From an uncultured Nitrospiraceae bacterium (GTDB lineage: Bacteria; Nitrospirota; Thermodesulfovibrionia; Thermodesulfovibrionales; SM23-35): 40,847 nucleotides of DNA. The notes beneath the pieces are model-generated. The model was not told the DNA's origin. It searched no databases and worked only from the letters and a program-made list of their open reading frames with translations. The translations under genes and the position numbers were made by a program. The stretch covers positions 1 to 40,847 of the forward strand of contig CAZLFE010000005.1 in assembly GCA_964558725.1 (NCBI GenBank), in the 5' to 3' direction. Every line of letters begins with the position of its first letter. Within the stretch, counting starts at the first letter, position 1. Positions 11,595-38,578 of the stretch are shown piece after piece.

Positions 11595-12677
11595 TCACCT
11601 CACCTTTAATGTTGCCAGGCTTAATAAAGCCAGCATCATTCCTATTATCCAGAACCTCACGATGACTTTTGGTTCAGGCCACCCTTTTAATTCAAAGTGG
11701 TGATGGATGGGGGCCATCTTAAACACCCTTTTACCCGTGAGCTTAAAGGATAGTACCTGCAGTATGACAGAGATTGTTTCTATAACAAAGATTCCCCCTA
11801 CTACTGCAAGGACTATCTCATGCTTTGTAATGACGGCCAGGGTACCGAGGGAACCCCCGAGCCCGAGAGATCCCACATCGCCCATAAAGATATCAGCTGG
11901 ATAAGAGTTATACCAGAGAAACCCAAGAGAAGCTCCAAATATGGCCCCGCAGAAAACGGTTAATTCTCCAGTGCCAGGGAGATAGAGGACCTGGAGGTAC
12001 TGGGCTAATCCCTTATGTCCTGATATGTAAACGAGTACACCAGTAGCAAGGACGGCAATAGCAACAAGACCTATTGCAAGCCCATCTATACCATCTGTAA
12101 GGTTAACTGCATTGGATGAGCCTACAATGACAATTGCTGAAAATGGTATATAAAACCAGCTGAGGTCAAAGAGCCATTTCTTAAAGAAGGGAACGATCAG
12201 AATATCTGCATAAGGGTCCTTTGGATTTACGTAGAGAAAGAAACCGATTAAGAGGGCAAGGACTATCTGGTTGCTAAACTTGGAAAAAACTCGGAGACCT
12301 TTGTGATTTTTCCTTGTGACCTTAAGATAATCGTCGAGAAAGCCGATGAATCCAAACCCTGCAAGGGAGATAATCATGATCCAGACATACATATTTTTCA
12401 GGTCTCCCCACAGAAAAACCGAAAGAAGTATGCAGACAATGATGAGGACTCCGCCCATCGTAGGAGTGCCTGCCTTGTTGATATGTGTCTTTGGACCATC
12501 ATCCCGAATTTGCTGGGTCATACTTAATCTCTTCAATCTTCCTATAATCCACGGACCCAATATGAGAGAAAACAACAGTGCTGTAAGCACAGCAAGGGAG
12601 GTTCTGAAGGTAATGTACCTGAAGACATTGAGAGGCGAGAACCAGTCATGTAAATTGTATAAAAGGCTATATAACAT
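11595..12677 (-). CDS. mraY: phospho-N-acetylmuramoyl-pentapeptide transferase
   Basis: Polytopic protein with MraY blocks (KAGTPTMGG, NAVNLTDGIDGLA, HHHFE). Confidence 0.96.
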   Translation of the reverse strand: MLYSLLYNLHDWFSPLNVFRYITFRTSLAVLTALLFSLILGPWIIGRLKRLSMTQQIRDDGPKTHINKAGTPTMGGVLIIVCILLSVFLWGDLKNMYVWIMIISLAGFGFIGFLDDYLKVTRKNHKGLRVFSKFSNQIVLALLIGFFLYVNPKDPYADILIVPFFKKWLFDLSWFYIPFSAIVIVGSSNAVNLTDGIDGLAIGLVAIAVLATGVLVYISGHKGLAQYLQVLYLPGTGELTVFCGAIFGASLGFLWYNSYPADIFMGDVGSLGLGGSLGTLAVITKHEIVLAVVGGIFVIETISVILQVLSFKLTGKRVFKMAPIHHHFELKGWPEPKVIVRFWIIGMMLALLSLATLKVR

Positions 12678-20190: not shown

Positions 20191-22809
20191 TTATCTTTCT
20201 GTAAGCTTTGTTGATAGTGCCCTTACAAATCTCTCCTCGTCTTCCCGCGACTTGAGATGACCTCTCAGTTTTTCTTCGAGGAGTTCTTTGAGAATTCTCG
20301 AATAGATAGGCCCTGGCTTCACACCCATCTTTTTCAGGTCTTCTCCCTTGAGAACTGTTTTTGCTTTCCTTAACTCTGTCAGATACTGAGATATTACCTT
20401 CTGTTTCTGCCTCTCCTTGCTTATTGCCATCGACAGCAGAATTGTTTCGATCCTGAGTTTGCTCAGGAGGTTATATGTCTCCACAGGATCATTAAGCGGA
20501 AGTCTTTTCAGAACTTCCCTTGCTTGAGGTATCCCCCTGATAATCATGTCCTTGATTTTTGGGGATGGTGATAACCGTTCTATAGCGGCCTTTACCTCTT
20601 CATCCTTCAATCCTGACAACATGGCCATGAGATATAAAATTCCCCTGTCTATTTTTTCTTCAAGGAAGAGCAGATTAAACCATGAGAGGGTTTCATGCAT
20701 TGATTTCATGGTTGTCTCAAGTTCCTCATTGAATATGAAGTTTGGGTATATAACCTGTAAGAGGCCGAGATCTGACAGTCTCTTGAGTGTCCTGCTCGGT
20801 TCAGTCTCTTGAAACAGGAGCAGGAGTTCTTCATACAGTCTCGGTCCTGAAAGCATTTCGAAGAGATTCATCTTTATTGCTGACTTTATGAGATTCTCTG
20901 TATGTTTACTGATTCTAAATCCGAACCTTTCAGAAAATCTGATTGCCCTGAACGCCCTTGTCGGATCTTCAATAAAGCTAAGGTTGTGGAGGACCCTGAT
21001 TGTTTTTTCTCGTAAATCACGCTGGCCTCCAAAAAAATCTATCAGAAGCCCGAAGTCCTTTAAATTTAATTTTACTGCTAAGGTGTTGATGGTAAAGTCT
21101 CTCCTGTACAGGTCTTTCTTGATTGATGATGCCTCGACCTTTGGAAGCACTGCAGGTGACTCATAGTATTCAGTTCTGGCTGTTGCTACATCGAGCTTTA
21201 GTTTATCTGTAATTACCTGAGCAGTGTTAAACCTCTCGTGTGTTTTTACCCGTGCACCCAGTCTTTTACCTAATGCCTTTGCAAAGGGAATTCCATCACC
21301 CTCGATGACAATATCAATGTCAAGATTTTCCTCACCCCTCAAAAGATCCCTCACCGTTCCTCCAACGAGATAGGCATCGAAACCTGCTTCCTCTGCAATC
21401 TCACCAGAAAGTTTGAGAATGTGATAGATCTCTGAAGGAAACCTATCTTTCAGTAAAGAAGAGAGGCTTCTTCCCATAGATGGTTTTTCTTTTATCACCG
21501 TTTTTTCTATCTTCCTGCGCCTGAGGAACTCCTCATAAAGAGTCCTCAGCAGGTCTGTTCTTGTGATTGCACCGATAATCTTACCATTCTCTATAACAGG
21601 CATAAACCTCTGGTTTTGTTCTATCATTAACGTCTCTATCTCTCTGATCGGTGCATTTGGGCCAACAGTTATGGCATCAGTTGTGGCAAAATCAATTGAT
21701 CTGCTTTTCCCAAAACCATGGAAGATGGCCTTCTCCACGATCTCTCGTGATATAAGACCAGTATACTTTTCCTCTCTCAAGACTGGCAGGACATTGACCC
21801 CATAACGGGTCATCATTTCCTCTGCTTCTTTGATAGAGATGTCCCACTGGATAGTGATAACGGGACTCGTCATTACATCAGAAGCAACTTTGAAGGGCTT
21901 TACATTATTTCTAAGTAGTTCTGTCAATCTTTCCTCAAGGACTTCTAGGGATGCCTCTTTTATTGTGGCAGAGGCTGCTGTAGGATGGCCCCCACCTCCA
22001 AATTCTTTCATCACCTTTGATACGTTGAGCTCCGGAACCCTGCTCCTTGCGACCATCAATATCTTTCCTTCCATGCTCAGCAGTAATAACACAGCATCAA
22101 TATCTTCAATATCCATCAGCCTGTGGGCAAGGTAAGCTGCGTCTCCGTGGTAGTTTTCACGGGAAGCCTTTGCCACTTTTATTCTTATCCCTCCTATCAC
22201 CATCTCTTTTGATGACTGAACAAGCTCATTCAGGAGGTCAAGTTCTTCCATGCTCAATTCCATTTTTAGAAAGCTCGAGACAATATTAAGGTTTGCACCT
22301 CTTCTCAGGAGATACGAAGCAGCAAGTAAGTCCCTCTCCGTCGTAGAAGGAAAAAGCAGGCACCCTGTCTCTTCATATATGCCTAAGGTGAGTATTGTGG
22401 CCTCTATTGGTGTCAGATGTATTTTTCTGGTTTTCAGTATCTCTGTAAGGATGGTTGCTGTTGCCCCGACAGTTTCGATCTTCTCAACATCTCCCCGTAT
22501 ATCGCCTTCATTGAAAGGGTGATGGTCATAGATGTGTATCTTTATCCCTTTTTGAGAAAGTAGTTCAGCAAAAGGTCCTATCCTACTTGGTATTTTTGTG
22601 TCAACGATGATGAGCCTTGTAACTTTTGAAAGGTCAATGTCTTTAATCCGCTTTATCTCTACTGGGTGAAAGGTCTCCATGAAGTCTCTCAGTTTCTTTT
22701 CCTGTGAACCTGGAAAGACCATCTTTGCTTCAGGATACAACTTATTGGCAGCCACCATTGATGCAAGAGAATCAAAGTCAGCATTTATGTGGGAGGTAAT
22801 GATATCCAC
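20191..22809 (-). CDS. multidomain DHH phosphoesterase - CBS pair - poly(A) polymerase/CCA-adding-type nucleotidyltransferase
   Basis: N-terminal DHH family motifs (HINADFDSLAS, IYDHHP, GGGGHPTAAS). Two CBS repeats. Then the PolA-head block YLVGGTVRDLL..DIDIV and RRDFTINTLA. Confidence 0.88.
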   Translation of the reverse strand: MDIITSHINADFDSLASMVAANKLYPEAKMVFPGSQEKKLRDFMETFHPVEIKRIKDIDLSKVTRLIIVDTKIPSRIGPFAELLSQKGIKIHIYDHHPFNEGDIRGDVEKIETVGATATILTEILKTRKIHLTPIEATILTLGIYEETGCLLFPSTTERDLLAASYLLRRGANLNIVSSFLKMELSMEELDLLNELVQSSKEMVIGGIRIKVAKASRENYHGDAAYLAHRLMDIEDIDAVLLLLSMEGKILMVARSRVPELNVSKVMKEFGGGGHPTAASATIKEASLEVLEERLTELLRNNVKPFKVASDVMTSPVITIQWDISIKEAEEMMTRYGVNVLPVLREEKYTGLISREIVEKAIFHGFGKSRSIDFATTDAITVGPNAPIREIETLMIEQNQRFMPVIENGKIIGAITRTDLLRTLYEEFLRRRKIEKTVIKEKPSMGRSLSSLLKDRFPSEIYHILKLSGEIAEEAGFDAYLVGGTVRDLLRGEENLDIDIVIEGDGIPFAKALGKRLGARVKTHERFNTAQVITDKLKLDVATARTEYYESPAVLPKVEASSIKKDLYRRDFTINTLAVKLNLKDFGLLIDFFGGQRDLREKTIRVLHNLSFIEDPTRAFRAIRFSERFGFRISKHTENLIKSAIKMNLFEMLSGPRLYEELLLLFQETEPSRTLKRLSDLGLLQVIYPNFIFNEELETTMKSMHETLSWFNLLFLEEKIDRGILYLMAMLSGLKDEEVKAAIERLSPSPKIKDMIIRGIPQAREVLKRLPLNDPVETYNLLSKLRIETILLSMAISKERQKQKVISQYLTELRKAKTVLKGEDLKKMGVKPGPIYSRILKELLEEKLRGHLKSREDEERFVRALSTKLTER

Positions 22810-27283: not shown

Positions 27284-28306
27284 TTAAAGTAGCTTAATCG
27301 TATTGTCAGTTATCAGTCTTACAATCTCAGGGTCAAACTGGGTACCTGCCCCTTTTATCAGTTCATCAATGATCTGACTTTGAGAAAGGGCCTTTCTATA
27401 AGGCCTATCACGCATCATTGCATCTATAGTGTCTGCGATTGCAACTATTCTTGCTGGAAGTGGTATCTTGTTTCCTTTAAGTCTTTCAGGATATCCTGTA
27501 CCATCAAATCTCTCGTGATGGTAAAGAATCACTTCGACTGTGTCTTCAAGGAAAGGCACCGCTTTAACAATCCTTGCACCTATCTCCGGATGTTTTCTCA
27601 TTTCTGCATGTTCTTCTCTACTGAGTAAATCCTTCTTTCTTAATATCTGTTCGTTTACTCCTATCTTTCCAATATCATGCATGATGGCCGCATGCCCGAG
27701 CTTATCTTTCATAATCTTTGAAAATCCAATGCCATCTGCTATTGTTGAGGACAGTTTTGCCACATGTTCGGAGTGGTCAAATGTATAACGGTCCTTTGCG
27801 TCTATTGCACGAATAAGTGCCTTTATGGTCCCCTCATAATATAGCATTAGATTCTGCCTTGCAGTTTCTACCTCCTTTACAAGGGATTCTTTAGTGCGTA
27901 AAAGATCTTCATGTTCTAACCTTGTTCTTTCCGAGTCGCGTCTTTTCTGAAGTCCACGTTCGACCACATTTATTACATCATCCTTATCAAAAGGCTTCGT
28001 AAGGTAATCTAAGGCACCGAGGCGTAATGCGCTCTGCGCTGTTTCAAGACCGGCGTATGCGGTCAGAAGTATAACCTCTGTATCAGGATATCTTTTTTTA
28101 ATCTCCTTCAGTACCGTTACTCCATCCATGTCCTGCATCTTTATATCAAGAACTACCAGATCCACAGGATTTTGGGCCATAAGATCAAGCCCTTCTTTCC
28201 CTCCATCTGCCATAAAAACAGTATATCTACCCTTTAAAACCTGCTGAACAGCATATCTCGCCATTAATTCATCATCTATTATGAGGATTTTTTCTTTGTT
28301 ATTCAT
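27284..28306 (-). CDS. response regulator with HD-GYP c-di-GMP phosphodiesterase output
   Basis: REC domain (ILIIDDE, LVVLDIKMQDMDG, KP). HD-GYP motifs (HDIGK, HHERFDGTGYP). Confidence 0.93.
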   Translation of the reverse strand: MNNKEKILIIDDELMARYAVQQVLKGRYTVFMADGGKEGLDLMAQNPVDLVVLDIKMQDMDGVTVLKEIKKRYPDTEVILLTAYAGLETAQSALRLGALDYLTKPFDKDDVINVVERGLQKRRDSERTRLEHEDLLRTKESLVKEVETARQNLMLYYEGTIKALIRAIDAKDRYTFDHSEHVAKLSSTIADGIGFSKIMKDKLGHAAIMHDIGKIGVNEQILRKKDLLSREEHAEMRKHPEIGARIVKAVPFLEDTVEVILYHHERFDGTGYPERLKGNKIPLPARIVAIADTIDAMMRDRPYRKALSQSQIIDELIKGAGTQFDPEIVRLITDNTIKLL

Positions 28307-30320
28307 TTTCTATTGGAACCACAGTTTTTGATACGTCTACAGTGAGGAGTTTAATTATAAAGCTGTTACTCCCGTTCTCACTTTTTATACTGAGGCTTCC
28401 GCCATGCCCCTCAATGATCTTATGGCTGATTGGAATATTTAGCTCAGTTCCAAGGGTATCAATATTCAGAAGCGGTTTAAGCAGGTCATCTCTTTCTTTA
28501 TCCGTTAACTCTTTGCCACTATATTTTATTAATATCTCCACATAAGGACTACTATCTATCGACACCGCACTGAGAGTGATAAAAGCGCCCCCAGGTGTCC
28601 TTTCAACAGCGCTGGAAACCAGATAATAGATAGCCTTTGCGAGGAGTTTTTTATCAGCGTTAATAAATACAGATTTATCGAGGTTTTGTTTTAAAAACCT
28701 ATGTGACGAGGGTATGTTCTTCACTATATAATCTGCGGATTCATCAATAATAAGGTTCACGTTTTCTTTATTAAGGTTATACTCGGCCTTACTCGAGAAA
28801 ATTATGAGTTTATCAATAAGGCTGTCAATCTTATGAATTGACTGAAAAACAACTGTTGCATAAAAATTATTAAGTTCCTCATTCTTAAACTTTTCATTCA
28901 TTAGCTGTGTATAAGTATATATTGATGTCATAGGGTTTCTTACCTCATCGGCAAGCTTTGCCATGAGGTCATTCATAGCCAGAAGCTTCTCCGTGCTTCT
29001 TTTCTGTTCCTCAAGTCTTTTAGAATCAGAAAGATCAGTGAAGACAATTCCTGCGCCGATAGGGATCCGATCTTCATCGAGCAACCTGCAGCTGTTTATC
29101 CCGATGGGCAGTTTTTCCTGGAGAATCTCCGCCTCGTGACGTTTATACGAGGTATCTCTAACCATAGTCTCATATAGTATGTCTCCCAATGGAGAAGGTA
29201 GTTCCCTTAAATCGTGATCTACCATCTCTGAGGGATTTAGATTCAAAATCTCAGATGCCCGCTGGTTAAAAATCGTGATCCTTTCATCCTTGTCAATTAC
29301 AATCACGCCGCTGGGCATGCTGGAAAGGATATTCTTTGTAAATTCTTTCTGGTAGAGTATCTGATGGTATAAATCTATATCCTTCACTGCTGCAGCGAGG
29401 TAATTGCAAAGCACATAGATTATCTCAAGCTCCTCCCTGTAAAATGGTTCTTCCGTGATCTTATTGCCTATGTTAAAGATGCCTATCAGTTTTCCTTTAG
29501 GTGTCATGGGGAATGAAAATGTACACTCCAGAAGTTCCATTTCTGACTTTATATTCAGAGAGGCCGTGTCAGTAAGATTAAGCGGTTTACGTAGTATCCT
29601 GCCTGTCTTTGCAAGCCATGTCACAAGCGCACTGTCCTTTCTTAACCTGAGATTCTCAGCAATATATGGGTCAAGCCCATAGTGTGTTTTAACATGAAAT
29701 CCTTCTTTATCCCTGAGCATAACTGACATCTTACTTACACGGCTAATACCCATAACCGAATCCATAAAGTGATTAAAGAGCTTTCTCATATCAAAACTTA
29801 CAGTCAGCAACTTAGCAAAATTAATCAATACTTGTAGGAATCTCCCGGATGCAAACGACCCAAGACCTTCCTGGCCATAAAAGGAGCTGACAGGAGTCCG
29901 CAGATCGTATGTACCATGTACAGGGGCATCATTTCTTGATTTTTCAAGGAGGCCTGTCACTTTCTTTAGCCTTTGCTTATCGAGGCCGCGCTTAACTATG
30001 ATGGGAAGCTCGCTATGTATAGACCGAGCCTCTACACAACCATAAATACTCGGGGGCATATTCTCCATAGTGAAATCGTTAAGTCTCTCGGGTGTAATAA
30101 GGATAACCGTGTCATTGTCGAGCTTATTTAATAGCTCCTCTAACCTGGATATCTTATATGAGACTGTATCTATAAGAAGTAGGTTAATCAGGAAATTGGT
30201 GTGAAGATCCTCAAACTCCTCTAAAGTCTTGAGGGGGTATATGGTATAGCCCTTAAGGGCTGTCTTTACCTCAGGAATAATTACATCATCTCTATCACTA
30301 AGTAATGCTAAGATTTCCAT
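28299..30320 (-). CDS. histidine-kinase-like sensor (REC-like/GAF/PAS) lacking the phospho-acceptor His and with a degenerate ATP-binding domain
   Basis: The H-box reads LADEVRNPMTSI, whereas the neighbouring kinase has FAHEIKNPLTSI. N, G1 and G2 boxes are not recognisable (LVSSAVERT, KYSGKEL, GTELNI). PAS-like segment (SGVIVIDKDERITIFNQRASEIL). Confidence 0.85.
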   Translation of the reverse strand: MEILALLSDRDDVIIPEVKTALKGYTIYPLKTLEEFEDLHTNFLINLLLIDTVSYKISRLEELLNKLDNDTVILITPERLNDFTMENMPPSIYGCVEARSIHSELPIIVKRGLDKQRLKKVTGLLEKSRNDAPVHGTYDLRTPVSSFYGQEGLGSFASGRFLQVLINFAKLLTVSFDMRKLFNHFMDSVMGISRVSKMSVMLRDKEGFHVKTHYGLDPYIAENLRLRKDSALVTWLAKTGRILRKPLNLTDTASLNIKSEMELLECTFSFPMTPKGKLIGIFNIGNKITEEPFYREELEIIYVLCNYLAAAVKDIDLYHQILYQKEFTKNILSSMPSGVIVIDKDERITIFNQRASEILNLNPSEMVDHDLRELPSPLGDILYETMVRDTSYKRHEAEILQEKLPIGINSCRLLDEDRIPIGAGIVFTDLSDSKRLEEQKRSTEKLLAMNDLMAKLADEVRNPMTSIYTYTQLMNEKFKNEELNNFYATVVFQSIHKIDSLIDKLIIFSSKAEYNLNKENVNLIIDESADYIVKNIPSSHRFLKQNLDKSVFINADKKLLAKAIYYLVSSAVERTPGGAFITLSAVSIDSSPYVEILIKYSGKELTDKERDDLLKPLLNIDTLGTELNIPISHKIIEGHGGSLSIKSENGSNSFIIKLLTVDVSKTVVPIENE

Positions 30321-32499
30321 CTCTCGCTTCCATTTTCTTAATAGGCAGTGTTATCTTAAAAGTAGTTCCTTTTTTAAATTCACTATCCACTACTATTTTA
30401 CCACAGTGGTCTTCAACAATCTTTTTAGTTATGGCAAGACCAAGCCCTGCGCCTATTGTCTTTGTCGAAAAAAAAGGCTCAAATATCCTGTGTACATCCT
30501 CAGTAGATATTCCGTCCCCATTGTCTGAAATTGACATGTCAACATTCTCTCCATTTGGGTTAATACTAACCTTTATTACTCCGTCATCCCGATTGTCAGG
30601 AATAGCCTGACAACCATTCATTATTATATTAATAAATGCCTGTCTTAGCCTTTTTTCATCTCCCAATACGTCGACCTTAATGTTTTTATAATCCTTTTCA
30701 ATATTGATCTTTTTCCTTCTAAGTTCAAGGTTTGCCTTTACCTCATCAATAATCTGGTCTATAAGCCCGGTTATATTTACAGTGCTCATTCTGCCAGATG
30801 TCCTCCCTGACGAAAGATTTAGAAATTCTGAAATAAGACCGTCTATACGGTTTACACTATCTATAACAATCTTTGAGAAGTTTTCCCTGAAATCTCTATC
30901 AGAGAACCTTTCGGGTAGCAATTGGGCAAATGTCTTTATAGAGGTGAGGGGGTTTTTTATCTCGTGTGCGAAGGTGGCAGATATCATACCTATTGATGCA
31001 AGCCTCTCTGAGTAAACCTTCTCTTCATAGAGTCTGGCATTTTTTATGGCAATTGCCGCCTGGTTAGATATAGTATTAAGCAATCTGATGTCTTCATCAG
31101 AGAATATATCTGCTGATTGCTTCTCTCCAAGAACCATTAAGAGTTCTAATTTACCATCGATAAATACTGGAACTACTACTTCACCATTAAAAGGCTTAAG
31201 GTCGGTATTAACTTTATCTACTACTTCCTGGCTTATTTTATGAATCTGCGGCAGCTCCTCTCTTATAACAACATTATTAAATGTCCTGAGGAGTTTAACT
31301 ATCTCTGATGTCCCGTTTATTGTTCCATCACTTGCTTGTATTCTGTATTCTGTGTTGTGTGCCCTGAAAGCAGAGTCTCTGTCTATGTTCATTGCTTTTT
31401 CGTCTTTCATTACATTATCTTTTCCATATGCTGTAAAATAGACAATTCTATAACTTTCACCCGAAACAATAGAGAGCAAATAAATGTTTTTTAAGCCAAG
31501 AGTTGAGAAAATTGTATCTCCAACGGAACTGTATATTTTCCTAAGATTAAAAGTTGAAGCAAGCTCATGGCTTACTTTCTGTATAGTGGCGTAATAGTCG
31601 TATGTCCTTTTATAAAAGATTTTGTCAATAATTGTTTGGACCCTGTTTCTAATAGGATTGAAAAGAAATGCAATTATAAGGGCAGCAATAGCAATAACTG
31701 TAAAAGAAGTTATACCAGCCAGATTAGATAAATATTTAGTCATGGCAAGAATAAGTATGATAAAAAAGCTGGTCAAAATCCCGGCAGAAAGGGAATAGAC
31801 CGCTGTTTTTTTGACTATAATATTTATGTCCATAAGGCGATAACGGAGGATGGCATAAGTAACAATAATACAGTATATAGGGATAGTGAGATTACCAAAA
31901 GGGTAGATATCAATTTTAAACATAGGGAAGAAATTGGTAGTGCCTCCTAAAAACCCCGAGAACGTTCCTACAAAAAAATAAAGTATTTGATTCCTTTTGA
32001 TTCCAGAGGTCTTTCTATAATGCACGACTAATTCAACATGCCCCCAAACAACTAAACTAATCCAAATAAAGAAAAAAATGGGATAAAATAAGCCAGTTGC
32101 GTGGTTATAATAAAGGAAGTTAAAGATAACTCTTGTCTTTGATATGAAGAGAGAAGTTGCATTAAGAAATAAAAAGAAGATGCCTTGCAAGTATGCGAAG
32201 AGGAGCATTTTTTTTAATTCTTTTTCCCTGTCGCAAAATACAACAGCGGTGTGAAAAAAAAGGACAGCAATGAATATTACCCCTATATGAGATAATCTCC
32301 AGGCAATTATTCCTTCCAAAGGAGTAGTTGCCCTCCCAATTAAAAAAGCGCCAAACCCCCAGATAGCTACCGCTACATTAAAAAACAACCAAACAATATG
32401 GATTTTTCTTTTCCTGTATATCGCTAATATAACTGCTACTCCTGAACATGTTAAGCCTAATATCAACCCTAATAGTGAATATAAAAAATTCGGATTCAT
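30298..32499 (-). CDS. polytopic membrane sensor histidine kinase (about 7-8 TM helices - GAF - HisKA - HATPase)
   Basis: Intact H-box FAHEIKNPLTS, N-box NIIMNGCQA, G1 SDNGDGIS and G2 GAGLGLAI. The N-terminal ~290 aa are hydrophobic helices. Confidence 0.92.
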   Translation of the reverse strand: MNPNFLYSLLGLILGLTCSGVAVILAIYRKRKIHIVWLFFNVAVAIWGFGAFLIGRATTPLEGIIAWRLSHIGVIFIAVLFFHTAVVFCDREKELKKMLLFAYLQGIFFLFLNATSLFISKTRVIFNFLYYNHATGLFYPIFFFIWISLVVWGHVELVVHYRKTSGIKRNQILYFFVGTFSGFLGGTTNFFPMFKIDIYPFGNLTIPIYCIIVTYAILRYRLMDINIIVKKTAVYSLSAGILTSFFIILILAMTKYLSNLAGITSFTVIAIAALIIAFLFNPIRNRVQTIIDKIFYKRTYDYYATIQKVSHELASTFNLRKIYSSVGDTIFSTLGLKNIYLLSIVSGESYRIVYFTAYGKDNVMKDEKAMNIDRDSAFRAHNTEYRIQASDGTINGTSEIVKLLRTFNNVVIREELPQIHKISQEVVDKVNTDLKPFNGEVVVPVFIDGKLELLMVLGEKQSADIFSDEDIRLLNTISNQAAIAIKNARLYEEKVYSERLASIGMISATFAHEIKNPLTSIKTFAQLLPERFSDRDFRENFSKIVIDSVNRIDGLISEFLNLSSGRTSGRMSTVNITGLIDQIIDEVKANLELRRKKINIEKDYKNIKVDVLGDEKRLRQAFINIIMNGCQAIPDNRDDGVIKVSINPNGENVDMSISDNGDGISTEDVHRIFEPFFSTKTIGAGLGLAITKKIVEDHCGKIVVDSEFKKGTTFKITLPIKKMEARDGNLSIT

Positions 32500-32508
32500 A
32501 TTTTTACT

Positions 32509-33804
32509 CTATATTTTCCTAAAAACTACTGCAGCGTTATAACCGGCAAAAGCGCAACATATTTTTAGCACTGTTTTTAACTCCAATTTGACTTTTTCTT
32601 TTGCCACGTCCATTTCCATTTTAGGATGAGTTTCCTCAACATTCAAGACAGGCAATACTAAATTACTTTCTAAACAAAGCAAAAGTATAGCTGTCTCTAA
32701 CAAATTGCTCCCCCCTAAATTATGCCCAATGTAAGGTTTAAATGTAGTAACTAAGGGTCTTTTAGGGTTTGTTCCAAAAATATCTGTAATTGCTTTTGCT
32801 TCGTATCTATCAATAACGGCATTACCCACTCCATGAGCACACACTAAATCAATTTCTTTTTTATCAATCTTGCTAAACCTTATCGCTTCTCTTATCGCTC
32901 TTTGGTAGAAATCATCTCCCACCTTTGGATAAATTACCTTCCATCCTTCTTGAGAGAAACCCCCGCCTAAATATTCAGCGTAAATTTTCGCTTTTCTTTT
33001 GACTGCGTGCTCCCAATCTTCCATTACAAGACCACATCCTCCATCTCCAAAAACAATCCCATTTGATTTTTTACTAAATGGCTTTATTCTGCCATCTTCA
33101 GCATACATATTTAAGTCTTTAAACCATAGATACTTATATATCCGTGGATAATCCGCTGAGGCGACAATTACCGCCGAACTTCGGCCGGTTTTAATTATTT
33201 GGCTGGCAACTTCTAAAGCATAAAGCCCTGAAGAACAAGCATTGTTTACAAATAGAGAATACCCGTGAATTTTAAATGTTCTTAGGATGTGAAACATAAC
33301 CATAAAAGTTTGCAAATCGTACGCACTCTTGACTGTTGCATAATGGTATTTTTCAGAAAATTGTCTCTTTGTGATTGGGTCAGATTTCTTCTTAATCTTC
33401 GCAAAAGAAACATCAATACATTTAGAAATATACTGCTCTAAACCGGCATTCTCATGGGTAACTACACACCCTATATCATTATCTTCAGGATTATATTCTA
33501 ATTTACTATCCTCCAAAGCTAACTTTACTGCAGCTAAAAGATAATACAAATCTATTATATCCTCTCCATCTTTCCAATCCTTAATCTCTTGTAATGTGTT
33601 CTTATCTATATTGAATTTTTCAATATCAAAGTTATCTATTTTGTGCAAATAAAATCTTTCCCATAATTCACCATCAACAAACCACTCTTCTAGTTTGATA
33701 TTTGTTTTTCCCTCAACAAGAGCGCTCCATAGAGAATCTTTACCTATCCCAATAGAAGTCAAAGGTCCTATCCCTGTTACCACCACTCTTTTTTCTTGCA
33801 TCAT
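32509..33804 (-). CDS. beta-ketoacyl synthase family protein (Cys-His-His present, atypical insertion)
   Basis: VNNACSSG (Cys), CAHGVGN (His) and IGHNLGGSN (His). About 40 extra residues before the Cys loop relative to FabF. The start ATG overlaps the upstream KS stop (ATGA). Confidence 0.88.
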   Translation of the reverse strand: MMQEKRVVVTGIGPLTSIGIGKDSLWSALVEGKTNIKLEEWFVDGELWERFYLHKIDNFDIEKFNIDKNTLQEIKDWKDGEDIIDLYYLLAAVKLALEDSKLEYNPEDNDIGCVVTHENAGLEQYISKCIDVSFAKIKKKSDPITKRQFSEKYHYATVKSAYDLQTFMVMFHILRTFKIHGYSLFVNNACSSGLYALEVASQIIKTGRSSAVIVASADYPRIYKYLWFKDLNMYAEDGRIKPFSKKSNGIVFGDGGCGLVMEDWEHAVKRKAKIYAEYLGGGFSQEGWKVIYPKVGDDFYQRAIREAIRFSKIDKKEIDLVCAHGVGNAVIDRYEAKAITDIFGTNPKRPLVTTFKPYIGHNLGGSNLLETAILLLCLESNLVLPVLNVEETHPKMEMDVAKEKVKLELKTVLKICCAFAGYNAAVVFRKI

Positions 33805-35018
33805 TTATTCCCCCCATTTTTGACTACCAGACAAGAATTATTACCACCAAAAGCGAAACCATTATTTAATGCAATATTCACTTTCTTTACTTTTGCTCTA
33901 TTAGGAACACAATCTATGTCACATTCTGGGTCAGGGGTCTCAAAATTTATAGTTGGAGGGATGATGTTTTCTTTCACAGTAAGACAGCAGGCTAATGCCT
34001 CAATAGCAGATGCAGCGCCCATAGTGTGGCCAAGCATAGATTTTATTGAACTAACAGGAATTGTTTTACTTCGTTCTTTAAAAAGATTTTTAATTGCGGC
34101 ACATTCAGTTTTATCGTTGCTTTGCGTACCGGTTCCATGAGCGTTTATATAATCAACCTCTTCTTTCTGAATATCCGCTTCTTTTAAGGCTTTCCGTATT
34201 ACTTTCTCAACACCCTCTACATGGGAGGCAGTCATATGGTAAGCATCACAACTAATGCCATAGCCTAATATCTCTGCGTAGATGTTCGATTTTCTTCTTA
34301 AAGCAAACTCTATCGGCTCTAAGACAAGAATTCCGGCTCCTTCTCCAACGAGCATTCCCCTCCTATTTTTATCAAAGGGCTGACATTTCTCATGAGCCAT
34401 TGCATAGAGGCGATGGAAGCCACAAAATGCAACTTTAGAGAACGAATCAGCACCCCCTACAACAGCATAATCTATATCTCCTTTTTTTATTAAATCAAAC
34501 CCGTAACCTATGGCATAGTTACCAGCAGCACAGGCTGTGGGAATAAGATAATTTGGTCCCAGTAGTTTAAAGTAATTAGCGATATTAGCAGATAAATTAT
34601 TCGGCGAAGACTGCAATATTTTTGTTTTGTTAATCTTATCAGACCCTTCCTTAATCCAGGCATCAATGGATTCCTCCAATGGTCTCTCACCCATTGTAGT
34701 CCCAATAAAAACACCAGCTCTTTCTTTACCGATGTTTCTCAAAGATAATCTGGAATCTTTTAAAGCCAGAGATGCAGCGGCTATAGCCAATTGGGATGTG
34801 CGACCCAAGAATTGGATTTTTCTTTTGGCAATAAAATCTTCAGGAATAAAATTCTTTATCTCACCAGCATAATGACACCTGAATTCTTTGGTGTCAAATG
34901 AAGTAACTCTACTTATACCTGATTTGCCATTTATTATGGCCTTCCAGAACTCATCTTTGCCAATCCCTACAGATGAAACTACTCCTAACCCTGTAACTAC
35001 AACTCTGCGTTTATTCAT
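33801..35018 (-). CDS. beta-ketoacyl-ACP synthase II-like (FabF-type KS)
   Basis: PTACAAG (Cys), NAHGTGT (His) and MLGHTMGAAS (His). Full-length FabF-like collinearity. Confidence 0.93.
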   Translation of the reverse strand: MNKRRVVVTGLGVVSSVGIGKDEFWKAIINGKSGISRVTSFDTKEFRCHYAGEIKNFIPEDFIAKRKIQFLGRTSQLAIAAASLALKDSRLSLRNIGKERAGVFIGTTMGERPLEESIDAWIKEGSDKINKTKILQSSPNNLSANIANYFKLLGPNYLIPTACAAGNYAIGYGFDLIKKGDIDYAVVGGADSFSKVAFCGFHRLYAMAHEKCQPFDKNRRGMLVGEGAGILVLEPIEFALRRKSNIYAEILGYGISCDAYHMTASHVEGVEKVIRKALKEADIQKEEVDYINAHGTGTQSNDKTECAAIKNLFKERSKTIPVSSIKSMLGHTMGAASAIEALACCLTVKENIIPPTINFETPDPECDIDCVPNRAKVKKVNIALNNGFAFGGNNSCLVVKNGGNK

Positions 35019-35019
35019 T

Positions 35020-35307
35020 TTACCCCGTGAGATAATTTTTAAGCCGATTCTTTAGATACCTTTTGCCCCATGCTGTTTTCAAATATTTCTCTCTTATTCT
35101 TGCATCATGTTCATTTAAGCAAGCTTCGTAATATATAATTTCAAATGGTACCCTATTTTTAGTAGATTGAGTCCTGCCATTATTATGTTCTTCAATGCGT
35201 CTCTTAAGATTCCGGGTTGAGCCAGTATACCATTTGTCATCTTTTAAACTTTCAGAACATATGTATAAATCATCACAATATCTCACGGGGTTTAATGCTA
35301 AATACAA
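35020..35307 (-). CDS. small GIY-YIG nuclease family protein, copy 1 (start uncertain)
   Basis: KWYTGST (YIG), RRIEEHN (conserved Arg) and IIYYEAC (Glu) are present. The only in-frame starts are TTG 35307 or GTG 35286, both inside the fabZ 3' end/TIR. The ATG that matches copy 2 (35273) is out of frame by 1 nt. Confidence 0.65.
   Translation of the reverse strand: MYLALNPVRYCDDLYICSESLKDDKWYTGSTRNLKRRIEEHNNGRTQSTKNRVPFEIIYYEACLNEHDARIREKYLKTAWGKRYLKNRLKNYLTG
35023..35290. mobile_element. 268-bp cassette A: GIY-YIG ORF bounded by perfect 12-bp terminal inverted repeats
   Basis: CCCCGTGAGATA (35023-35034) and TATCTCACGGGG (35279-35290). It fills the whole fabZ-KS gap. A second homologous cassette lies at 37311-37577, and both interiors are 244 nt. 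Confidence 0.6.
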
Positions 35308-35719
35308 GATTTGCTTTTGCCACGATTTTGTTACTCACTCTCGCTATAACATCTGTTATTGCAGCATAATCCAGAAACTTTACTTTCTCTGGTTCTATAA
35401 TCATTTTATTACCGGGATATACCGGAGCCAAGAACTCCGCCTTTACCTTGCCTAAATAATAATCGGGGAGCGCTTTGGCTATTTCCGGCTTATCAACAGA
35501 ATAAAGAATTATTGAAGCCTGTGCCATTGCTTCTATTATTAAAACACCCGGCATTATAGGTCTGCCGGGGAAATGCCCCTCAAAAAAACTTTCATTGTTT
35601 TTGATATTTTTGACAGCCACAATTTTTTGGGTACCATCAACTTCGATTACCTCATCAATAAAAAGAAAAGGCTCTCTATGAAGTAAAATAGATTCAATTT
35701 TTTCTTTATCCCAGTTCAT
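35273..35719 (-). CDS. fabZ: 3-hydroxyacyl-ACP dehydratase, FabZ-type hot-dog fold
   Basis: LLHREPFLFIDEV, GHFPGRPIMPGVLIIEAMAQ (catalytic His and Glu). The last six codons (KPREIL) and the stop lie inside the cassette A inverted repeat. Confidence 0.9.
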   Translation of the reverse strand: MNWDKEKIESILLHREPFLFIDEVIEVDGTQKIVAVKNIKNNESFFEGHFPGRPIMPGVLIIEAMAQASIILYSVDKPEIAKALPDYYLGKVKAEFLAPVYPGNKMIIEPEKVKFLDYAAITDVIARVSNKIVAKANLVFSIKPREIL

Positions 35720-35740
35720 ATATGAGCCTTTTTTAGAACA

Positions 35741-35762
35741 TGAGATAATTACCTATCTCACG
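35741..35762. repeat. degenerate end-to-end copy of the cassette inverted repeats at the ACP-fabZ junction
   Basis: TGAGATA (35741-35747), attacc, TATCTCACG (35754-35762). The right arm matches 9 of 12 nt of the TIR and the left arm 7 of 12. It overlaps the ACP stop codon. Confidence 0.45.
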
Positions 35763-35998
35763 TCCTTCAAGTGCTTGGTATATTCCATTATCAGTCTTAG
35801 ATTCCTGATATTTGGGATATCTTTTTCGGGTATAATAATCCGATACTTCTTCTCAAAAGCAGCCACTATCTCAATTGCCTTTAATGAATCTATCCCCAAA
35901 TCTCTAAAAAAGTCTGCATCAAGCGTAAGTTTTTCCACAGGAACCTCAGTAATATCTGCAATTATTTTCTTTACTTCTTCTTCGAAGTTATCAGGCAT
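35753..35998 (-). CDS. acyl carrier protein (divergent, non-housekeeping type)
   Basis: 81 aa. Phosphopantetheine site LGIDSLKAIEIV. Basic C-terminus, unlike the acidic AcpP. Confidence 0.9.
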   Translation of the reverse strand: MPDNFEEEVKKIIADITEVPVEKLTLDADFFRDLGIDSLKAIEIVAAFEKKYRIIIPEKDIPNIRNLRLIMEYTKHLKDVR

Positions 35999-36010
35999 GT
36001 ACCCTCCTTC

Positions 36011-37243
36011 TCATTGATATCTGGATATAATTGATGACGCATTGCTTCCACCGGGACCAAAATTGTTAATTAATACATTGTTTATTCTCGCTATCCGTGA
36101 TTTGTTGACCACATAATCAAGGTCGCAATCATTGTCTTTTACCTTATAATTAATTGTTGGCGGTATAAAATTATTAACTATACTGCCTATAGAAGCAGCA
36201 ATCTGAAGTAGACCACCTGCACTAAAAGGCTCTCCTATCATTGATTTAATAGAGCTCACAGGGATATTGAAAGCAAACTTGCCAAAAACATCCTTTATCG
36301 CCTTTGTCTCTAATCTGTCCTGTTCAGGTACAGAATTTGCCGAAGCACTTATATAATCTATATCTGTAATCCTCAATCCAGAATCTCTAACTGCTTTCTT
36401 CATACTTTCTCTTAATCCATCTGCTTCCGGATTATATTTACCCATTTTATAGGCATCAAAACAATTGCCTATGCCTTTAATCTCAGCATAAATATTTGCC
36501 TTTCTTCTTTTAGCATATTCCTCATCTTCTATCACTATAACCGCTGCTCCTTCACCTAATATGATTCCATTTCTTCTTTTATCAAAAGGGCAGGATAATT
36601 CTTCACCTTTGATACCGGCAAAAAAACCTAACCTGTAAAATCCAATAAAATTTATCAAAGCAAAACTCTCCACAGCTCCTACCAGAACTGCTTTAATTCG
36701 TCCCAATTTGATAAAATCTACTGCGTACTTTAATGCGTCTAAGCTTGATGTATAACCTGTAGAAATGGTTGTATTGAATCCTTGGATATTAAAGCGAATT
36801 GAGACCTGACTTGAAGCAGCATTTACCACTGTTCCAGGAAAAAGAGCAGCATCAGTGAAAAGAGGGCCTTCCTTTATTGCTCCTTTTTCAAATTCAGCAA
36901 AATTCCAAAGGGAAGACAAGGTAGTTCCTGTGCAGACACCTATGTCATCTGTATTTTTATAGTTAATTGTTAATTTTGCATCCTCTATTGCTAATTTTGC
37001 AGCAGAACACAATAGCCTTGCAGTTCTGTCAAGGCTTTTTAAACCTTTCAAGCCTAAAAAATCCGTGGGTTTAAAATTATTAATTTCACCACCCAACTTA
37101 CACTTAAACTCGCTTGTATCAAACCGATTGATTGGCTTAATCCCGGACCGGCCTTCCTTCAAAGCTGTCCAGAATTGTTCCTTTCCAATACCATTTGGAG
37201 CAATTACTCCTATGCCCGTTGTTACTATTCGTTTTTTACTCAT
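36011..37243 (-). CDS. beta-ketoacyl synthase-like protein lacking the catalytic triad (chain-length-factor-like partner)
   Basis: Collinear with FabF. The Cys loop reads ISTGYTSS (Cys->Tyr), the first His block YISASANSV (His->Ser), and the second His block SMIGEPFSAGG (His->Glu). Confidence 0.88.
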   Translation of the reverse strand: MSKKRIVTTGIGVIAPNGIGKEQFWTALKEGRSGIKPINRFDTSEFKCKLGGEINNFKPTDFLGLKGLKSLDRTARLLCSAAKLAIEDAKLTINYKNTDDIGVCTGTTLSSLWNFAEFEKGAIKEGPLFTDAALFPGTVVNAASSQVSIRFNIQGFNTTISTGYTSSLDALKYAVDFIKLGRIKAVLVGAVESFALINFIGFYRLGFFAGIKGEELSCPFDKRRNGIILGEGAAVIVIEDEEYAKRRKANIYAEIKGIGNCFDAYKMGKYNPEADGLRESMKKAVRDSGLRITDIDYISASANSVPEQDRLETKAIKDVFGKFAFNIPVSSIKSMIGEPFSAGGLLQIAASIGSIVNNFIPPTINYKVKDNDCDLDYVVNKSRIARINNVLINNFGPGGSNASSIISRYQ

Positions 37244-37246
37244 TTA

Positions 37247-37306
37247 CCCCGTGAGATATTTAAATTTAGTGCCAACCTATTTTGACCCTTTATTTATCTC
37301 ACGGGG
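37247..37306. mobile_element. 60-bp gene-less unit B with the same 12-bp inverted repeats (MITE-like or internal-deletion derivative)
   Basis: CCCCGTGAGATA (37247-37258), 36 nt, TATCTCACGGGG (37295-37306). It lies directly upstream of the KS-like gene start (37243) and 4 nt from cassette C. Confidence 0.45.
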
Positions 37307-37310
37307 TGAA

Positions 37311-37559
37311 CCCGTGAGATAATTCTTAAGACGATTCTTGAGATATCTTTTACCCCAGGCTGTCTTCAGATACTTCTCTCTCATTCTTGCATCGTGCATT
37401 TAAACAAGCTTCGAAATATATAATTTTAAATGGCTTTCTATTTTTAGTAGATTGGACATCACCATTATTATGTTCTTTAAACCGCCTCCTGAGGTCACGA
37501 GTCGAACCTGTATACCATTTATTATCTTTTAGGCTCTGTGAAACATATGTATAAATCAT
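37311..37559 (-). pseudogene. GIY-YIG nuclease family gene, copy 2, frameshifted
   Basis: Starts at ATG 37559 (MIYTYVSQSLKDNKWYTGST...). The ORF closes at 37350 after 69 codons. A 2-nt deletion relative to copy 1 lies around 37393-37398. The shifted frame still encodes DARMREKYLKTAWGKRYLKNRLKNYLTG, 27/28 identical to the copy 1 C-terminus. Confidence 0.7.
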
Positions 37560-37577
37560 AAATAATATCTCACGGGG
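37311..37577. mobile_element. 267-bp cassette C: frameshifted GIY-YIG ORF bounded by inverted repeats
   Basis: CCCGTGAGATA (37311-37321) and TATCTCACGGGG (37566-37577). The right end abuts the fabG stop codon (37578-37580). Confidence 0.6.
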
Positions 37578-38318
37578 TTAACTCATTCCACCATCTATAA
37601 CTATTGTCTGACCTGTAATATAGCTTGCCTCATCGCTGACTAAAAATTTCACCACCTTTGCCACTTCTTCCGGGCTCCCTAACCTTCCTAATGGTATCTG
37701 TTTTATTATCTGACTCTTATATTCTTCTTTTAAATCTTTAAGCATATCCGTCTCGATAAAACCAGGAGCAACTGCATTAACTCTGATATTATAGGATGCA
37801 ACTTCCTTAGCAAGAGATTTAGTAAAACCAATTATCCCTGCTTTAGAGGCAGCATAATTGGTCTGTCGTGGCAGACCTACGATTCCGCTTACTGAGGTAA
37901 TATTCGCGATAATGCCACTTTTCTGTTTTATAAATGTTATGATCGCGGCTTTGGTAAGATTGAATGTTCCATCTAAATTAGTATTAATTACTTCATGCCA
38001 ATCATTAAGTTCCATAAGGGCAAGTGCTTTATCTTTAATTACTCCGGCATTATTAACCACAATATCTATGCCACCAAATAATTCTTTAGTATTATCAACC
38101 CAGGATTTTACAGCATCATAGTCTCTAATATCCACCTGAAATGATTTAACGTTAACATCAAAATATTTTATTTCTTTTTCCAAATCCTCTGCATCTTCAT
38201 TACTTTTTAAGAAATTAAAACTAATATTCGCACCTCCCCTGGCTAATTCGATAGCAATAGCCCGCCCTATTCCTCTAGTAGCGCCACTAATGATAACAGT
38301 CTTATTCTTTAGTGACAT
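37578..38318 (-). CDS. fabG: 3-oxoacyl-ACP reductase (SDR)
   Basis: TGATRGIGRAIA cofactor motif, NNAG, and catalytic S...YxxxK (YAASKAG). I place the start at ATG 38318 (MSLKNKTVIISG). The track extension to 38369 adds 17 non-conserved residues. Confidence 0.92.
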   Translation of the reverse strand: MSLKNKTVIISGATRGIGRAIAIELARGGANISFNFLKSNEDAEDLEKEIKYFDVNVKSFQVDIRDYDAVKSWVDNTKELFGGIDIVVNNAGVIKDKALALMELNDWHEVINTNLDGTFNLTKAAIITFIKQKSGIIANITSVSGIVGLPRQTNYAASKAGIIGFTKSLAKEVASYNIRVNAVAPGFIETDMLKDLKEEYKSQIIKQIPLGRLGSPEEVAKVVKFLVSDEASYITGQTIVIDGGMS

Positions 38319-38578
38319 TTCCCGTATACGCCTTTTAAATCCATGTCTTGCATAGTTTACCATAACCAAAAAATGCCTCTAATATAAAGCCTTTTCTGCA
38401 ATTGGTAAGCATTTTTTGTGCTGAACAATCAGACTGATTAGCATTCAGAATCAGAACACAGATTACTTCGGTCGAAATGACCTCGTAATGACAACTAAAA
38501 ATTTTTTCTTTGCCTTATTCTTAAAAGTTTTACTTACTTTGTCTCCCCTGATGTGAGGAAAATCGGAGATGCTTCTAT

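Follow-up and report, generated by a model that had tools for sequence, protein, structure and literature searches.

Anammox bacteria carry a set of genes resembling those of a fatty acid synthase (FAS), Cluster I, which provides the main clue to the still unsolved route by which ladderane lipids are made. In Kuenenia, this cluster (kuste3603-3608) encodes amxACP, amxFabZ, amxFabF2, amxFabFmut, a phytoene-dehydrogenase-like enzyme and a B12 radical SAM enzyme. The Brocadia fulgida proteins amxFabF2 and amxFabFmut, which are chains B and C of the structure 9s5h, form a heterodimer that resembles a ketosynthase (KS) and its chain-length factor (2026 preprint). The heterodimer decarboxylates malonyl-acyl carrier protein (malonyl-ACP), produces acetoacetyl-ACP and favours C6/C8 probes, and its tunnel takes its shape from two residues of the inactive subunit, Phe135 and Val139 (2026 preprint); only the Kuenenia and Brocadia proteins are known to form a heterodimer with decarboxylase activity. 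The dehydratase amxFabZ is described as favouring chains of C8 or less and as rejecting canonical ACP (amxFabZ literature), and the amx set co-exists with canonical FabF, ACP and FabZ in anammox bacteria (anammox literature). The preprint calls Cluster I unique to ladderane producers. Similar clusters were reported from deltaproteobacteria (Rattray et al., 2009), and metagenome surveys such as that of Cariaco Basin metagenome-assembled genomes (MAGs) report expressed, uncharacterised clusters that antiSMASH labels 'ladderane' from many phyla, Omnitrophota among them. Here we analyze a related gene cluster on contig CAZLFE010000005.1 of an uncultured Nitrospiraceae bacterium (assembly GCA_964558725.1). 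The whole stretch of DNA analyzed, 40.8 kb in length, is called the window; contigs of relatives were read to +/-10 kb around their loci.

The cluster reads fabG, KS1, ACP, fabZ, KS2 and KS3 and is followed by two histidine kinases (HK1 and HK2) and a response regulator (Table 1). It is like Cluster I in the catalytic, gate and tunnel residues of KS2 and KS1, in the marker residues of its FabZ, in having an ACP of its own and in the CrtI-like gene that is found in its sister loci. It is unlike Cluster I in its gene order, in the inclusion of fabG, in the extra active ketosynthase KS3 and in the linkage to a relay of a seven-transmembrane (7TM) kinase and an HD-GYP protein. Moreover, the window lacks the phytoene-dehydrogenase-like (CrtI-like) and B12 radical SAM genes of the anammox cluster. 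An earlier reading of this DNA, made from the letters alone (the sequence-only reading), had not noticed the kinship with Cluster I and the antiSMASH 'ladderane-type' clusters. Judged by its sequence, the core of the locus is a new member of this family in a non-anammox phylum.

KS1 and KS2 are orthologues of the anammox ketosynthase pair

Ranking solved structures by score placed amxFabF2 first for KS2 (9s5h_B, 484 bits), ahead of the ishigamide ketosynthase Iga11 (6kxd, 351 bits) and B. subtilis FabF (332 bits). For KS1 the best match was amxFabFmut (9s5h_C, 374 bits) and the next one reached 274 bits. KS2 shares 55% identity with B. fulgida amxFabF2, and KS1 shares 47% with amxFabFmut; within Nitrospirota, identities for KS1 are 72-91%. 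A neighbour-joining tree joined KS2 with amxFabF2 in 50/50 bootstraps and KS1 with amxFabFmut in 44/50. KS1, KS2 and KS3 formed three clades in this tree, each apart from canonical FabF-like proteins. The sequence-only reading had named the placement of all three proteins within ordinary FabF clades as a point to be checked; by tree and NCBIfam scores, none of them sits there. KS2 scored 439.7 bits on TIGR03150, under the cut-off of 493.75, and passed the KAS II subfamily cut-off.

The residues of the pair point in the same direction. KS2 retains the Cys-His-His triad, the gate Phe and the residues Ala164, Phe203 and Met337, and triad and gate Phe are kept in 77/77 KS2-type proteins. KS1 had been described as a triad-less KS-like protein, and it does carry Tyr in place of Cys, Ser in place of the first His and Glu in place of the second, while the tunnel residues Phe135, Thr138 and Val139 are retained. 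This pattern is general: among 67 KS1-type proteins the Cys and the first His are each found in none, and Phe135 is found in all. The Tyr of KS1 corresponds to Val or Thr in the anammox proteins and to Gln in aromatic type II polyketide synthase (PKS) chain-length factors. By analogy to the characterised homologues, KS1 is predicted to be a chain-length-factor-like partner of KS2 and to form a heterodimer with it.

The earlier proposal that an active KS, an inactive KS partner, a ketoreductase (KR) and a dehydratase (DH) act with their own ACP and no enoyl reductase (ER) holds, with KS2/KS1 being closest to amxFabF2/amxFabFmut. The same combination is found in highly reducing type II PKS (ishigamide Iga10-16; ApeO/ApeC) and would fit an aryl-polyene, flexirubin or other polyene-pigment cluster. 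The second rank of the ishigamide polyene KS among the solved matches of KS2 and the ApeP/ApeI-like matches on FabZ in the precomputed Pfam listing agree with such a product. However, the window lacks the starter-activating, amide-forming, thioesterase and export genes of highly reducing type II PKS. An adenylating/starter enzyme, a thioesterase, a second ACP, acyl- or glycosyltransferases and LolA/MMPL-type export are absent from window and sister loci alike. All NCBIfam models for specialised polyketide/flexirubin KS and KR scored far under their cut-offs (FlxB reductase 250 vs 340), and KS2 and KS1 are far more closely related to the anammox pair. We therefore consider a polyene pigment very unlikely.

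FabZ carries the marker residues of amxFabZ

The closest solved structures of FabZ are the amxFabZ entries 7qv0_A and 8ay*. A gapless alignment to 7qv0_A places Ile, Leu and Leu at positions 69, 96 and 115, which are the amxFabZ markers; the canonical residues used for comparison come from the text of the amxFabZ paper and from E. coli FabZ. The Ile replaces the canonical tunnel Gly, and two ACP-docking positions are non-basic. FabZ reached 126.7 bits on TIGR01750, under the cut-off of 155.15, and passed NF000582.

The ACP had been called basic. With 17 Asp and Glu against 14 Lys and Arg it is weakly acidic, which is less acidic than usual, and it scored under every NCBIfam ACP cut-off (54.0 vs 70.45). 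For fabG, an alternative TTG start at 38369 would give a protein of 263 aa; homologues have 246-248 aa.

The host is not an anammox bacterium and the core is found in several phyla

PolX, FabG, KS1, ACP, KS2, HK2 and the regulator are 81-91% identical to and syntenic with proteins of Nitrospirota MAGs (loci L019, L089, L077 and L023), and the 90% identity cluster of the CCA enzyme encoded in the window holds proteins named Nitrospirota and Thermodesulfovibrionales. The host thus belongs to the Thermodesulfovibrionales (Nitrospirota). Because of this placement and of the FtsZ that is encoded in the window, it is not an anammox bacterium. An Omnitrophota host was considered since most of the KS3 homologues that bear an organism name are from this phylum. 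It was rejected because all other genes are of Nitrospirota/Thermodesulfovibrionales type and the Omnitrophota signal stems from a swapped cassette (see below).

Within Thermodesulfovibrionia the block has the order fabG, KS1, ACP, fabZ, KS2, then either KS3 or a thioester reductase (NAD_binding_4), often a CrtI-like gene, and then the HisKA_7TM kinase, a PAS kinase and the REC-HD-GYP regulator. The core is found in other gene orders in Omnitrophota, in MAGs labelled Planctomycetia and in one Desantisbacteria MAG, and a KS1 homologue named Firestonebacteria was found. As the core recurs in these phyla, the FAS-like part of anammox Cluster I and the phytoene-dehydrogenase-like gene are not confined to ladderane producers. 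The sequence-only reading had also stated that the cluster lacks tailoring genes. This does not extend to the sister loci, which carry a CrtI-like oxidoreductase and a thioester reductase. The closest relatives, L019 and L089, have the CrtI-like gene, as do many other loci; the window does not.

The antiSMASH 'ladderane-type' clusters likewise combine FAS-like genes, extra FabF paralogues and phytoene-dehydrogenase-like genes, a likeness drawn from their descriptions. Reports on these clusters do not describe the KS3 family, the alternation of KS3 with the thioester reductase, the 7TM linkage or the exchange of cassettes. The antiSMASH label in many phyla, and the finding that the closest known relatives of four genes of the locus are anammox Cluster I genes, could be taken to indicate ladderane lipid synthesis. 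We regard this as extremely improbable, given that the host is a member of the Thermodesulfovibrionales with ftsZ and that ladderanes are reported only from anammox bacteria. In addition, the window lacks a CrtI-like gene, and a B12 radical SAM gene was seen neither in the window nor in the inspected gaps of sister loci.

Several further genes were seen in the gaps of sister loci. A protein of ~200 aa that looks nitroreductase-like by eye lies just 5' of the CrtI-like gene in the KS2-CrtI gaps of five loci (L024, L028, L029, L037 and L014) and recurs in the Omnitrophota and Planctomycetia-labelled variants. The same gaps hold GMC oxidoreductase-like, methyltransferase-like and PP-loop proteins, again named by eye. 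Two loci that share the CCA enzyme at >=90% identity, L173 and L174, show two GGDEF genes and then a FadL/Toluene_X-type outer-membrane channel where the window has the regulator-kinase-FAS block. As their flanks differ from those of the window, the genomic position of the block varies among close relatives; the contigs of these sister strains end short of the cluster itself. Beyond the channel, L173 encodes a methyltransferase and a GAF-HD-GYP protein. L050 was considered as a canonical acpP-fabF locus beside L044 in one MAG and was rejected, as it represents another cluster with KS2-like, KS1-like and CrtI-like genes.

KS3 represents a distinct ketosynthase family linked to 7TM kinases

The third ketosynthase had been labelled atypical. 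KS3 does possess N-terminal insertions, but it has an intact Cys-His-His triad and the gate Phe, which are conserved in ~100 homologues: Cys190 and His324 are invariant and His361 is nearly so. The fabF model gave KS3 only a low score (Table 1), and KS3 forms a separate long-branch clade (50/50 bootstraps).

We collected 87 non-redundant KS3 genes, 72 of which have room downstream. In 30 of these, a 7TM kinase is the next gene 3' of KS3; in 26 it is separated from KS3 by one or two CrtI-like genes, and in 4 by other genes, still within 6 kb. Ten loci stop within a CrtI-like gene at a contig edge and two lack a 7TM kinase, so that 60/62 resolvable loci have the kinase downstream. KS3 and the thioester reductase occur together in none of 170 loci. 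A comparison limited to genome loci with >=6 kb of room found the 7TM kinase in 14/14 loci that have KS3 or the reductase and in 0/6 loci that have neither. Minimal cassettes of ACP, KS3 and 7TM kinase also exist away from any KS1/KS2. One contig, L084 (3635-6038; 8911-12266), carries two KS3 paralogues that are 59% and 78% identical to KS3 of the window; each directly precedes its own HisKA_7TM protein, and the second has a frameshifted ACP upstream.

Because KS3 fills the slot that is held by the thioester reductase in sister clusters, it probably performs the last, product-defining condensation. This would yield a 3-oxoacyl species, which may leave as a 3-oxo acid or a methyl ketone.

KS3 and the 7TM sensor domain were exchanged as one cassette

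The sequence-only reading had ended the operon at KS3. The genes run on into HK1, HK2 and the REC-HD-GYP regulator. An AlphaFold model of HK1 (pLDDT 88.9) shows seven transmembrane helices, the last of which (TM7) ends at aa 218, and no sizeable extracytoplasmic domain in the 7TM part. Kinases of the HK1 type are conserved 3' of the cluster in relatives. HK2 is syntenic in Thermodesulfovibrionia loci with 57-83% identity. The regulator carries the motifs HDIGK and HHERFDGTGYP and scored 234 bits on the model of the NosR-family REC/c-di-GMP phosphodiesterase, under the cut-off of 400. Two GGDEF genes adjoin the relay genes. Over its full length (residues 23-719), HK1 also matches the model of PrsK, the histidine kinase of the XrtA/PEP-CTERM system (138 bits vs a cut-off of 300); both families share the layout of a polytopic N-terminus, GAF and kinase domains.

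The nearest neighbours of the window sequence switch abruptly in this region. KS3 and aa 1-215 of HK1 share 74-81% identity with stand-alone cassettes (L082-L087 and L091) and only 40-52% with L089, the closest relative. The remainder of HK1, from residue 216, is again nearest to L089 (79%), and the flanks of the cassette are 79-91% identical to this locus. As the break falls at the end of TM7 in the model, the exchanged piece comprises KS3 and the entire sensor domain. The break points are polymorphic in the population: related groundwater strains share them, with contigs that join 31854->33825 and carry other sequence in between. In run X3, which is dominated by a related strain, read depth falls from ~146 to 0.3-7 over the KS3 and 7TM region. 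In the tree, KS3 of the window nests with the stand-alone ACP-KS3-7TM cassettes. These data show that KS3 and the 7TM sensor domain were swapped into the window strain as one cassette. Since the closest relatives read KS3-CrtI-HK1, the CrtI-like gene was lost with the swap.

Signalling circuits in which a synthase is paired with a sensor have been described. The diffusible signal factor (DSF) circuit consists of the synthase RpfF, RpfC and the REC-HD-GYP protein RpfG, and CqsA/CqsS and LqsA/LqsS form alpha-hydroxyketone circuits. The locus resembles the DSF and CqsA/CqsS circuits, by analogy only, in that the gene of an enzyme for an acyl product adjoins a polytopic kinase and, as for DSF, in the REC-HD-GYP output. 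It differs in that the window encodes neither a crotonase (RpfF) nor a PLP enzyme (CqsA) domain, the enzyme being a KS, and in the 7TM family, which is HisKA_7TM. As KS3 and the 7TM input domain travel as a cassette, the domain probably responds to the lipid product or else to the enzyme's state, and hydrolysis of c-di-GMP is the probable output.

Alternatively, the operon might make a specialised bulk membrane lipid with an unsaturated or modified chain, and the 7TM kinase would then monitor the state of the membrane for homeostasis instead of receiving a released product. In anammox bacteria, the Cluster I homologues show high expression and are thought to build part of a membrane lipid, and the CrtI-like oxidoreductase of sister loci could desaturate or saturate chains. 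The 7TM architecture without a sizeable extracytoplasmic domain is also that of intramembrane-sensing kinases. However, the outputs are REC-HD-GYP proteins or a single REC and not DNA-binding regulators that could adjust lipid genes directly, and the 7TM kinase accompanies the off-loading enzyme (KS3 or thioester reductase) and not the core alone. Finally, the exchange of KS3 and sensor as one allele is explained more easily by ligand specificity than by a generic sensor of membrane state. We consider the membrane-lipid explanation to be rather unlikely.

Organization of the locus and insertions into the operon

The coordinates of all features are given in Table 1. The six open reading frames (ORFs) of the sequence-only reading are confirmed in position and order on the minus strand, and Pfam and NCBIfam assign them to SDR/FabG, KS, PP-binding, FabA/FabZ, KS and KS. 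Likewise, the ATGA overlap that couples the KS2 stop to the KS3 start is seen in the sequence. HK1 begins 10 nt past KS3, HK2 overlaps the HK1 stop by 23 nt and the regulator overlaps the HK2 stop. Judged from these overlapping or 10-nt-spaced genes, fabG to the regulator probably form one transcription unit.

Table 1. Coordinates of the features discussed in the text (positions in the window) and the matches on which their assignment is based.
Feature	Position	Strand	Evidence
fabG, 3-oxoacyl-ACP reductase, 246 aa from ATG at 38318	37578..38318	-	TIGR01830 304.8 bits vs cut-off 297.75; Pfam adh_short_C2, KR
GIY-YIG mini-element 'a'	37244..37581	-	Pfam GIY-YIG 6.5e-12
KS1, triad-less KS	36011..37243	-	9s5h_C 374 bits vs 274 next; orthologue of amxFabFmut
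ACP, 81 aa, DSL serine motif, pI 5.14	35753..35998	-	PP-binding 1.3e-14
FabZ, amxFabZ-type 3-hydroxyacyl-ACP dehydratase	35273..35719	-	closest solved entries 7qv0_A, 8ay* (amxFabZ)
GIY-YIG mini-element 'b'	35020..35290	-	Pfam GIY-YIG 1.2e-12
KS2, active ketosynthase	33801..35018	-	9s5h_B 484 bits; orthologue of amxFabF2
KS3, distinct KS family	32509..33804	-	triad Cys190/His324/His361; fabF model 190.9 bits
Swapped cassette, KS3 and whole HK1 7TM sensor domain (aa 1-215)	31854..33825	-	nearest neighbours switch at both ends
HK1, HisKA_7TM + GAF + HisKA + HATPase histidine kinase	30298..32499	-	Pfam
HK2, soluble GAF-PAS histidine kinase	28299..30320	-	Pfam
Response regulator, REC + HD-GYP, c-di-GMP phosphodiesterase type	27284..28306	-	Pfam Response_reg, HD_5, HD

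The sequence-only reading had overlooked two insertions of ~270-340 nt, one at the fabG/KS1 and one at the fabZ/KS2 junction, each with a frameshifted GIY-YIG ORF. Both elements are bounded by 11-nt terminal inverted repeats (CCCCGTGAGAT ... ATCTCACGGGG) flanked by TAA/TAAA, are ~80% identical to each other and are inserted 1-2 nt ahead of the ATG of the downstream gene. The 11-nt repeat has six copies in the window, all of them within the two elements, against a chance expectation of 0.5. Element 'a' contains an extra internal hairpin copy of the repeat, and its ORF is broken by a 2-nt deletion that leaves a stub of 69 aa. In element 'b', a 1-nt deletion after codon 6 shifts the ORF, and the Pfam match does not cover profile positions 1-8. 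The last 6 codons and the stop of fabZ stem from the repeat of element 'b'. Empty sites were found for both elements: contigs of related strains join 37243->37582 with 13 nt in between (site 'a'), and 35019->35291 are joined with 3 nt in between in run X4 (site 'b'). We know of no described bacterial mobile element of this form.

Similar traces were seen in relatives. L007 (Bacterium BMS3Bbin08) carries the 11-nt repeat four times around the homologous operon (8480-9227; 11912-11922). One of these copies lies exactly at the fabZ/KS2 junction, where no GIY-YIG ORF was detected, and it may mark either a footprint or a site that is targeted preferentially. Two Thermodesulfovibrionia loci, L003 (5150-5844) and L007 (14715-15394), carry a small nucleotidyltransferase gene 3' of KS2, together with another small gene that is HEPN-like by eye. 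In L003 the pair sits between KS2 and KS3, again as small, selfish-looking genes lodged in the operon.

The window further contains a dcw/mur cluster with ftsA and ftsZ, a DHH-CBS-CCA enzyme, two GAF-GGDEF proteins and PolX. A Peptidase_S11 D-Ala-D-Ala carboxypeptidase gene (10487-11593, minus strand) lies inside the dcw cluster in the mraY-murD gap, as it does in sister strains. The CCA enzyme is a fusion of 872 aa with DHH/DHHA1, two CBS domains and a CCA-adding/poly(A) polymerase head (20191-22809, minus strand), and the fusion is kept at >=90% in several Nitrospirota/Thermodesulfovibrionales MAGs.

The operon is probably accessory

A set of fab genes in a bacterial genome may simply be the housekeeping FAS. 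KS1/KS2 would then replace FabH for initiation, and KS3 would be the elongating KS. This would be consistent with the equivalog cut-off passed by FabG, the one cut-off passed by FabZ and the KAS II subfamily cut-off passed by KS2, with the ability of the amx heterodimer to initiate from malonyl-ACP and with the wide occurrence of the block in the class. Besides, the 40.8-kb window holds no other fab genes.

We nevertheless consider the housekeeping role improbable and the operon to be probably accessory, a conclusion drawn from several features of the locus and its relatives. KS1, KS2, KS3 and ACP score under the equivalog cut-offs. As the sequence-only reading had stated for fabD, fabH and enoyl reductase, domain and profile scans found no plsX, fabH, fabD or fabI/K/L/V anywhere in the window, so that it encodes neither a malonyl transferase nor an enoyl reductase. 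The composition of the cluster varies between species and its alleles are replaced between strains: KS3 is absent or replaced by a reductase in sister species, and close strains have an allele of ~50% identity. Relics of mobile elements are tolerated inside the operon, and the GC content (0.35 in the cassette 31854..33825) is below that of the dcw genes (0.40-0.47), which are housekeeping genes of the same window. The flanks differ in sister strains. Finally, there is the precedent of anammox bacteria, in which the homologous set co-exists with canonical FabF, ACP and FabZ and amxFabZ rejects the canonical ACP.

Discussion

On balance, we favor the view that the locus encodes an accessory, self-priming, short-chain type II FAS/PKS-like module of the anammox Cluster I kind, the product of which is probably sensed by the 7TM kinase and its REC-HD-GYP relay. 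By analogy to the amx enzymes, the KS2/KS1 heterodimer would prime itself by decarboxylating malonyl-ACP and extend short chains on the ACP of the cluster. FabG would reduce and the amx-type FabZ would dehydrate the intermediates, with the Ile-narrowed tunnel favoring chains of ~C6-C8. Because no enoyl reductase is encoded, the ACP-bound product might be a short- or medium-chain 3-hydroxy- or enoyl-thioester, possibly a polyenoyl-thioester, unless a reductase acts in trans. KS3 would perform the terminal condensation where sister clusters use the reductase. The product, either released or bound to the membrane, might then be sensed by the 7TM kinase and the signal passed via HK2 to the REC-HD-GYP phosphodiesterase.

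Several observations weigh against this model. In vitro, the anammox heterodimer gave only acetyl- and acetoacetyl-ACP, and no further elongation was seen (2026 preprint). Two tunnel positions distinguish KS2 from amxFabF2 (Ala110->Met and a nearby Ile->Arg), so the chain length deduced from amxFabF2 may not transfer. The nearest solved structure of the ACP is S. brodae amxACP (7qv0_D, 55.7 bits), with a small margin over Aquifex ACP (49.6 bits); carrier proteins of the amxACP type are marked by an unusual long 3-10 helix. The CrtI-like and reductase genes that sister loci possess are missing here, and the locus may be a reduced version of the cluster. Its accessory status is deduced from 40.8 kb of genome. 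Co-transcription is judged by gene spacing, and a scan for promoters and terminators gave chance-level match counts. A structure search with the 7TM domain returned weak, generic seven-helix (GPCR-like) matches with TM-scores <=0.5. All neighbourhood statistics are uncorrected for shared ancestry; this includes the split of 14/14 against 0/6 loci, for which a Fisher exact test calculated by hand gives p ~3e-5. A global co-evolution of KS3 and the 7TM domain was considered as well and is unsupported (distance correlation r = 0.28 vs 0.55 for KS3 and KS2), and we did not use it as evidence.

A bolder version of the model is that KS3 and the 7TM domain form a cognate pair of synthase and receptor for a fatty-acid-derived ligand, with REC-HD-GYP as output, and that strains and phyla exchange this pair as a single cassette that sets specificity. 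The variable synthase/sensor region of peptide pheromone loci would be a parallel. We hold this version to be speculative and rather doubtful. If true, the pair would represent a new family of lipid-based signalling, within or between cells, in uncultured anaerobes, and the anammox 'ladderane' FAS genes would derive from a widespread short-chain lipid module that is not ladderane-specific.

We found no earlier description in the literature of the linkage to a 7TM kinase and a c-di-GMP phosphodiesterase or of the joint exchange of KS3 and sensor. Both point to a lipid-sensing circuit that can be tested. Furthermore, the presence of four Cluster I orthologues with their marker residues in this host suggests that KS/chain-length factor, ACP and FabZ make up a general short-chain module. 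Ladderane-specific chemistry would therefore lie in the additions made by anammox bacteria. The locus and its relatives thus offer a comparative route to the ladderane problem and more candidate organisms in which the module may be studied.

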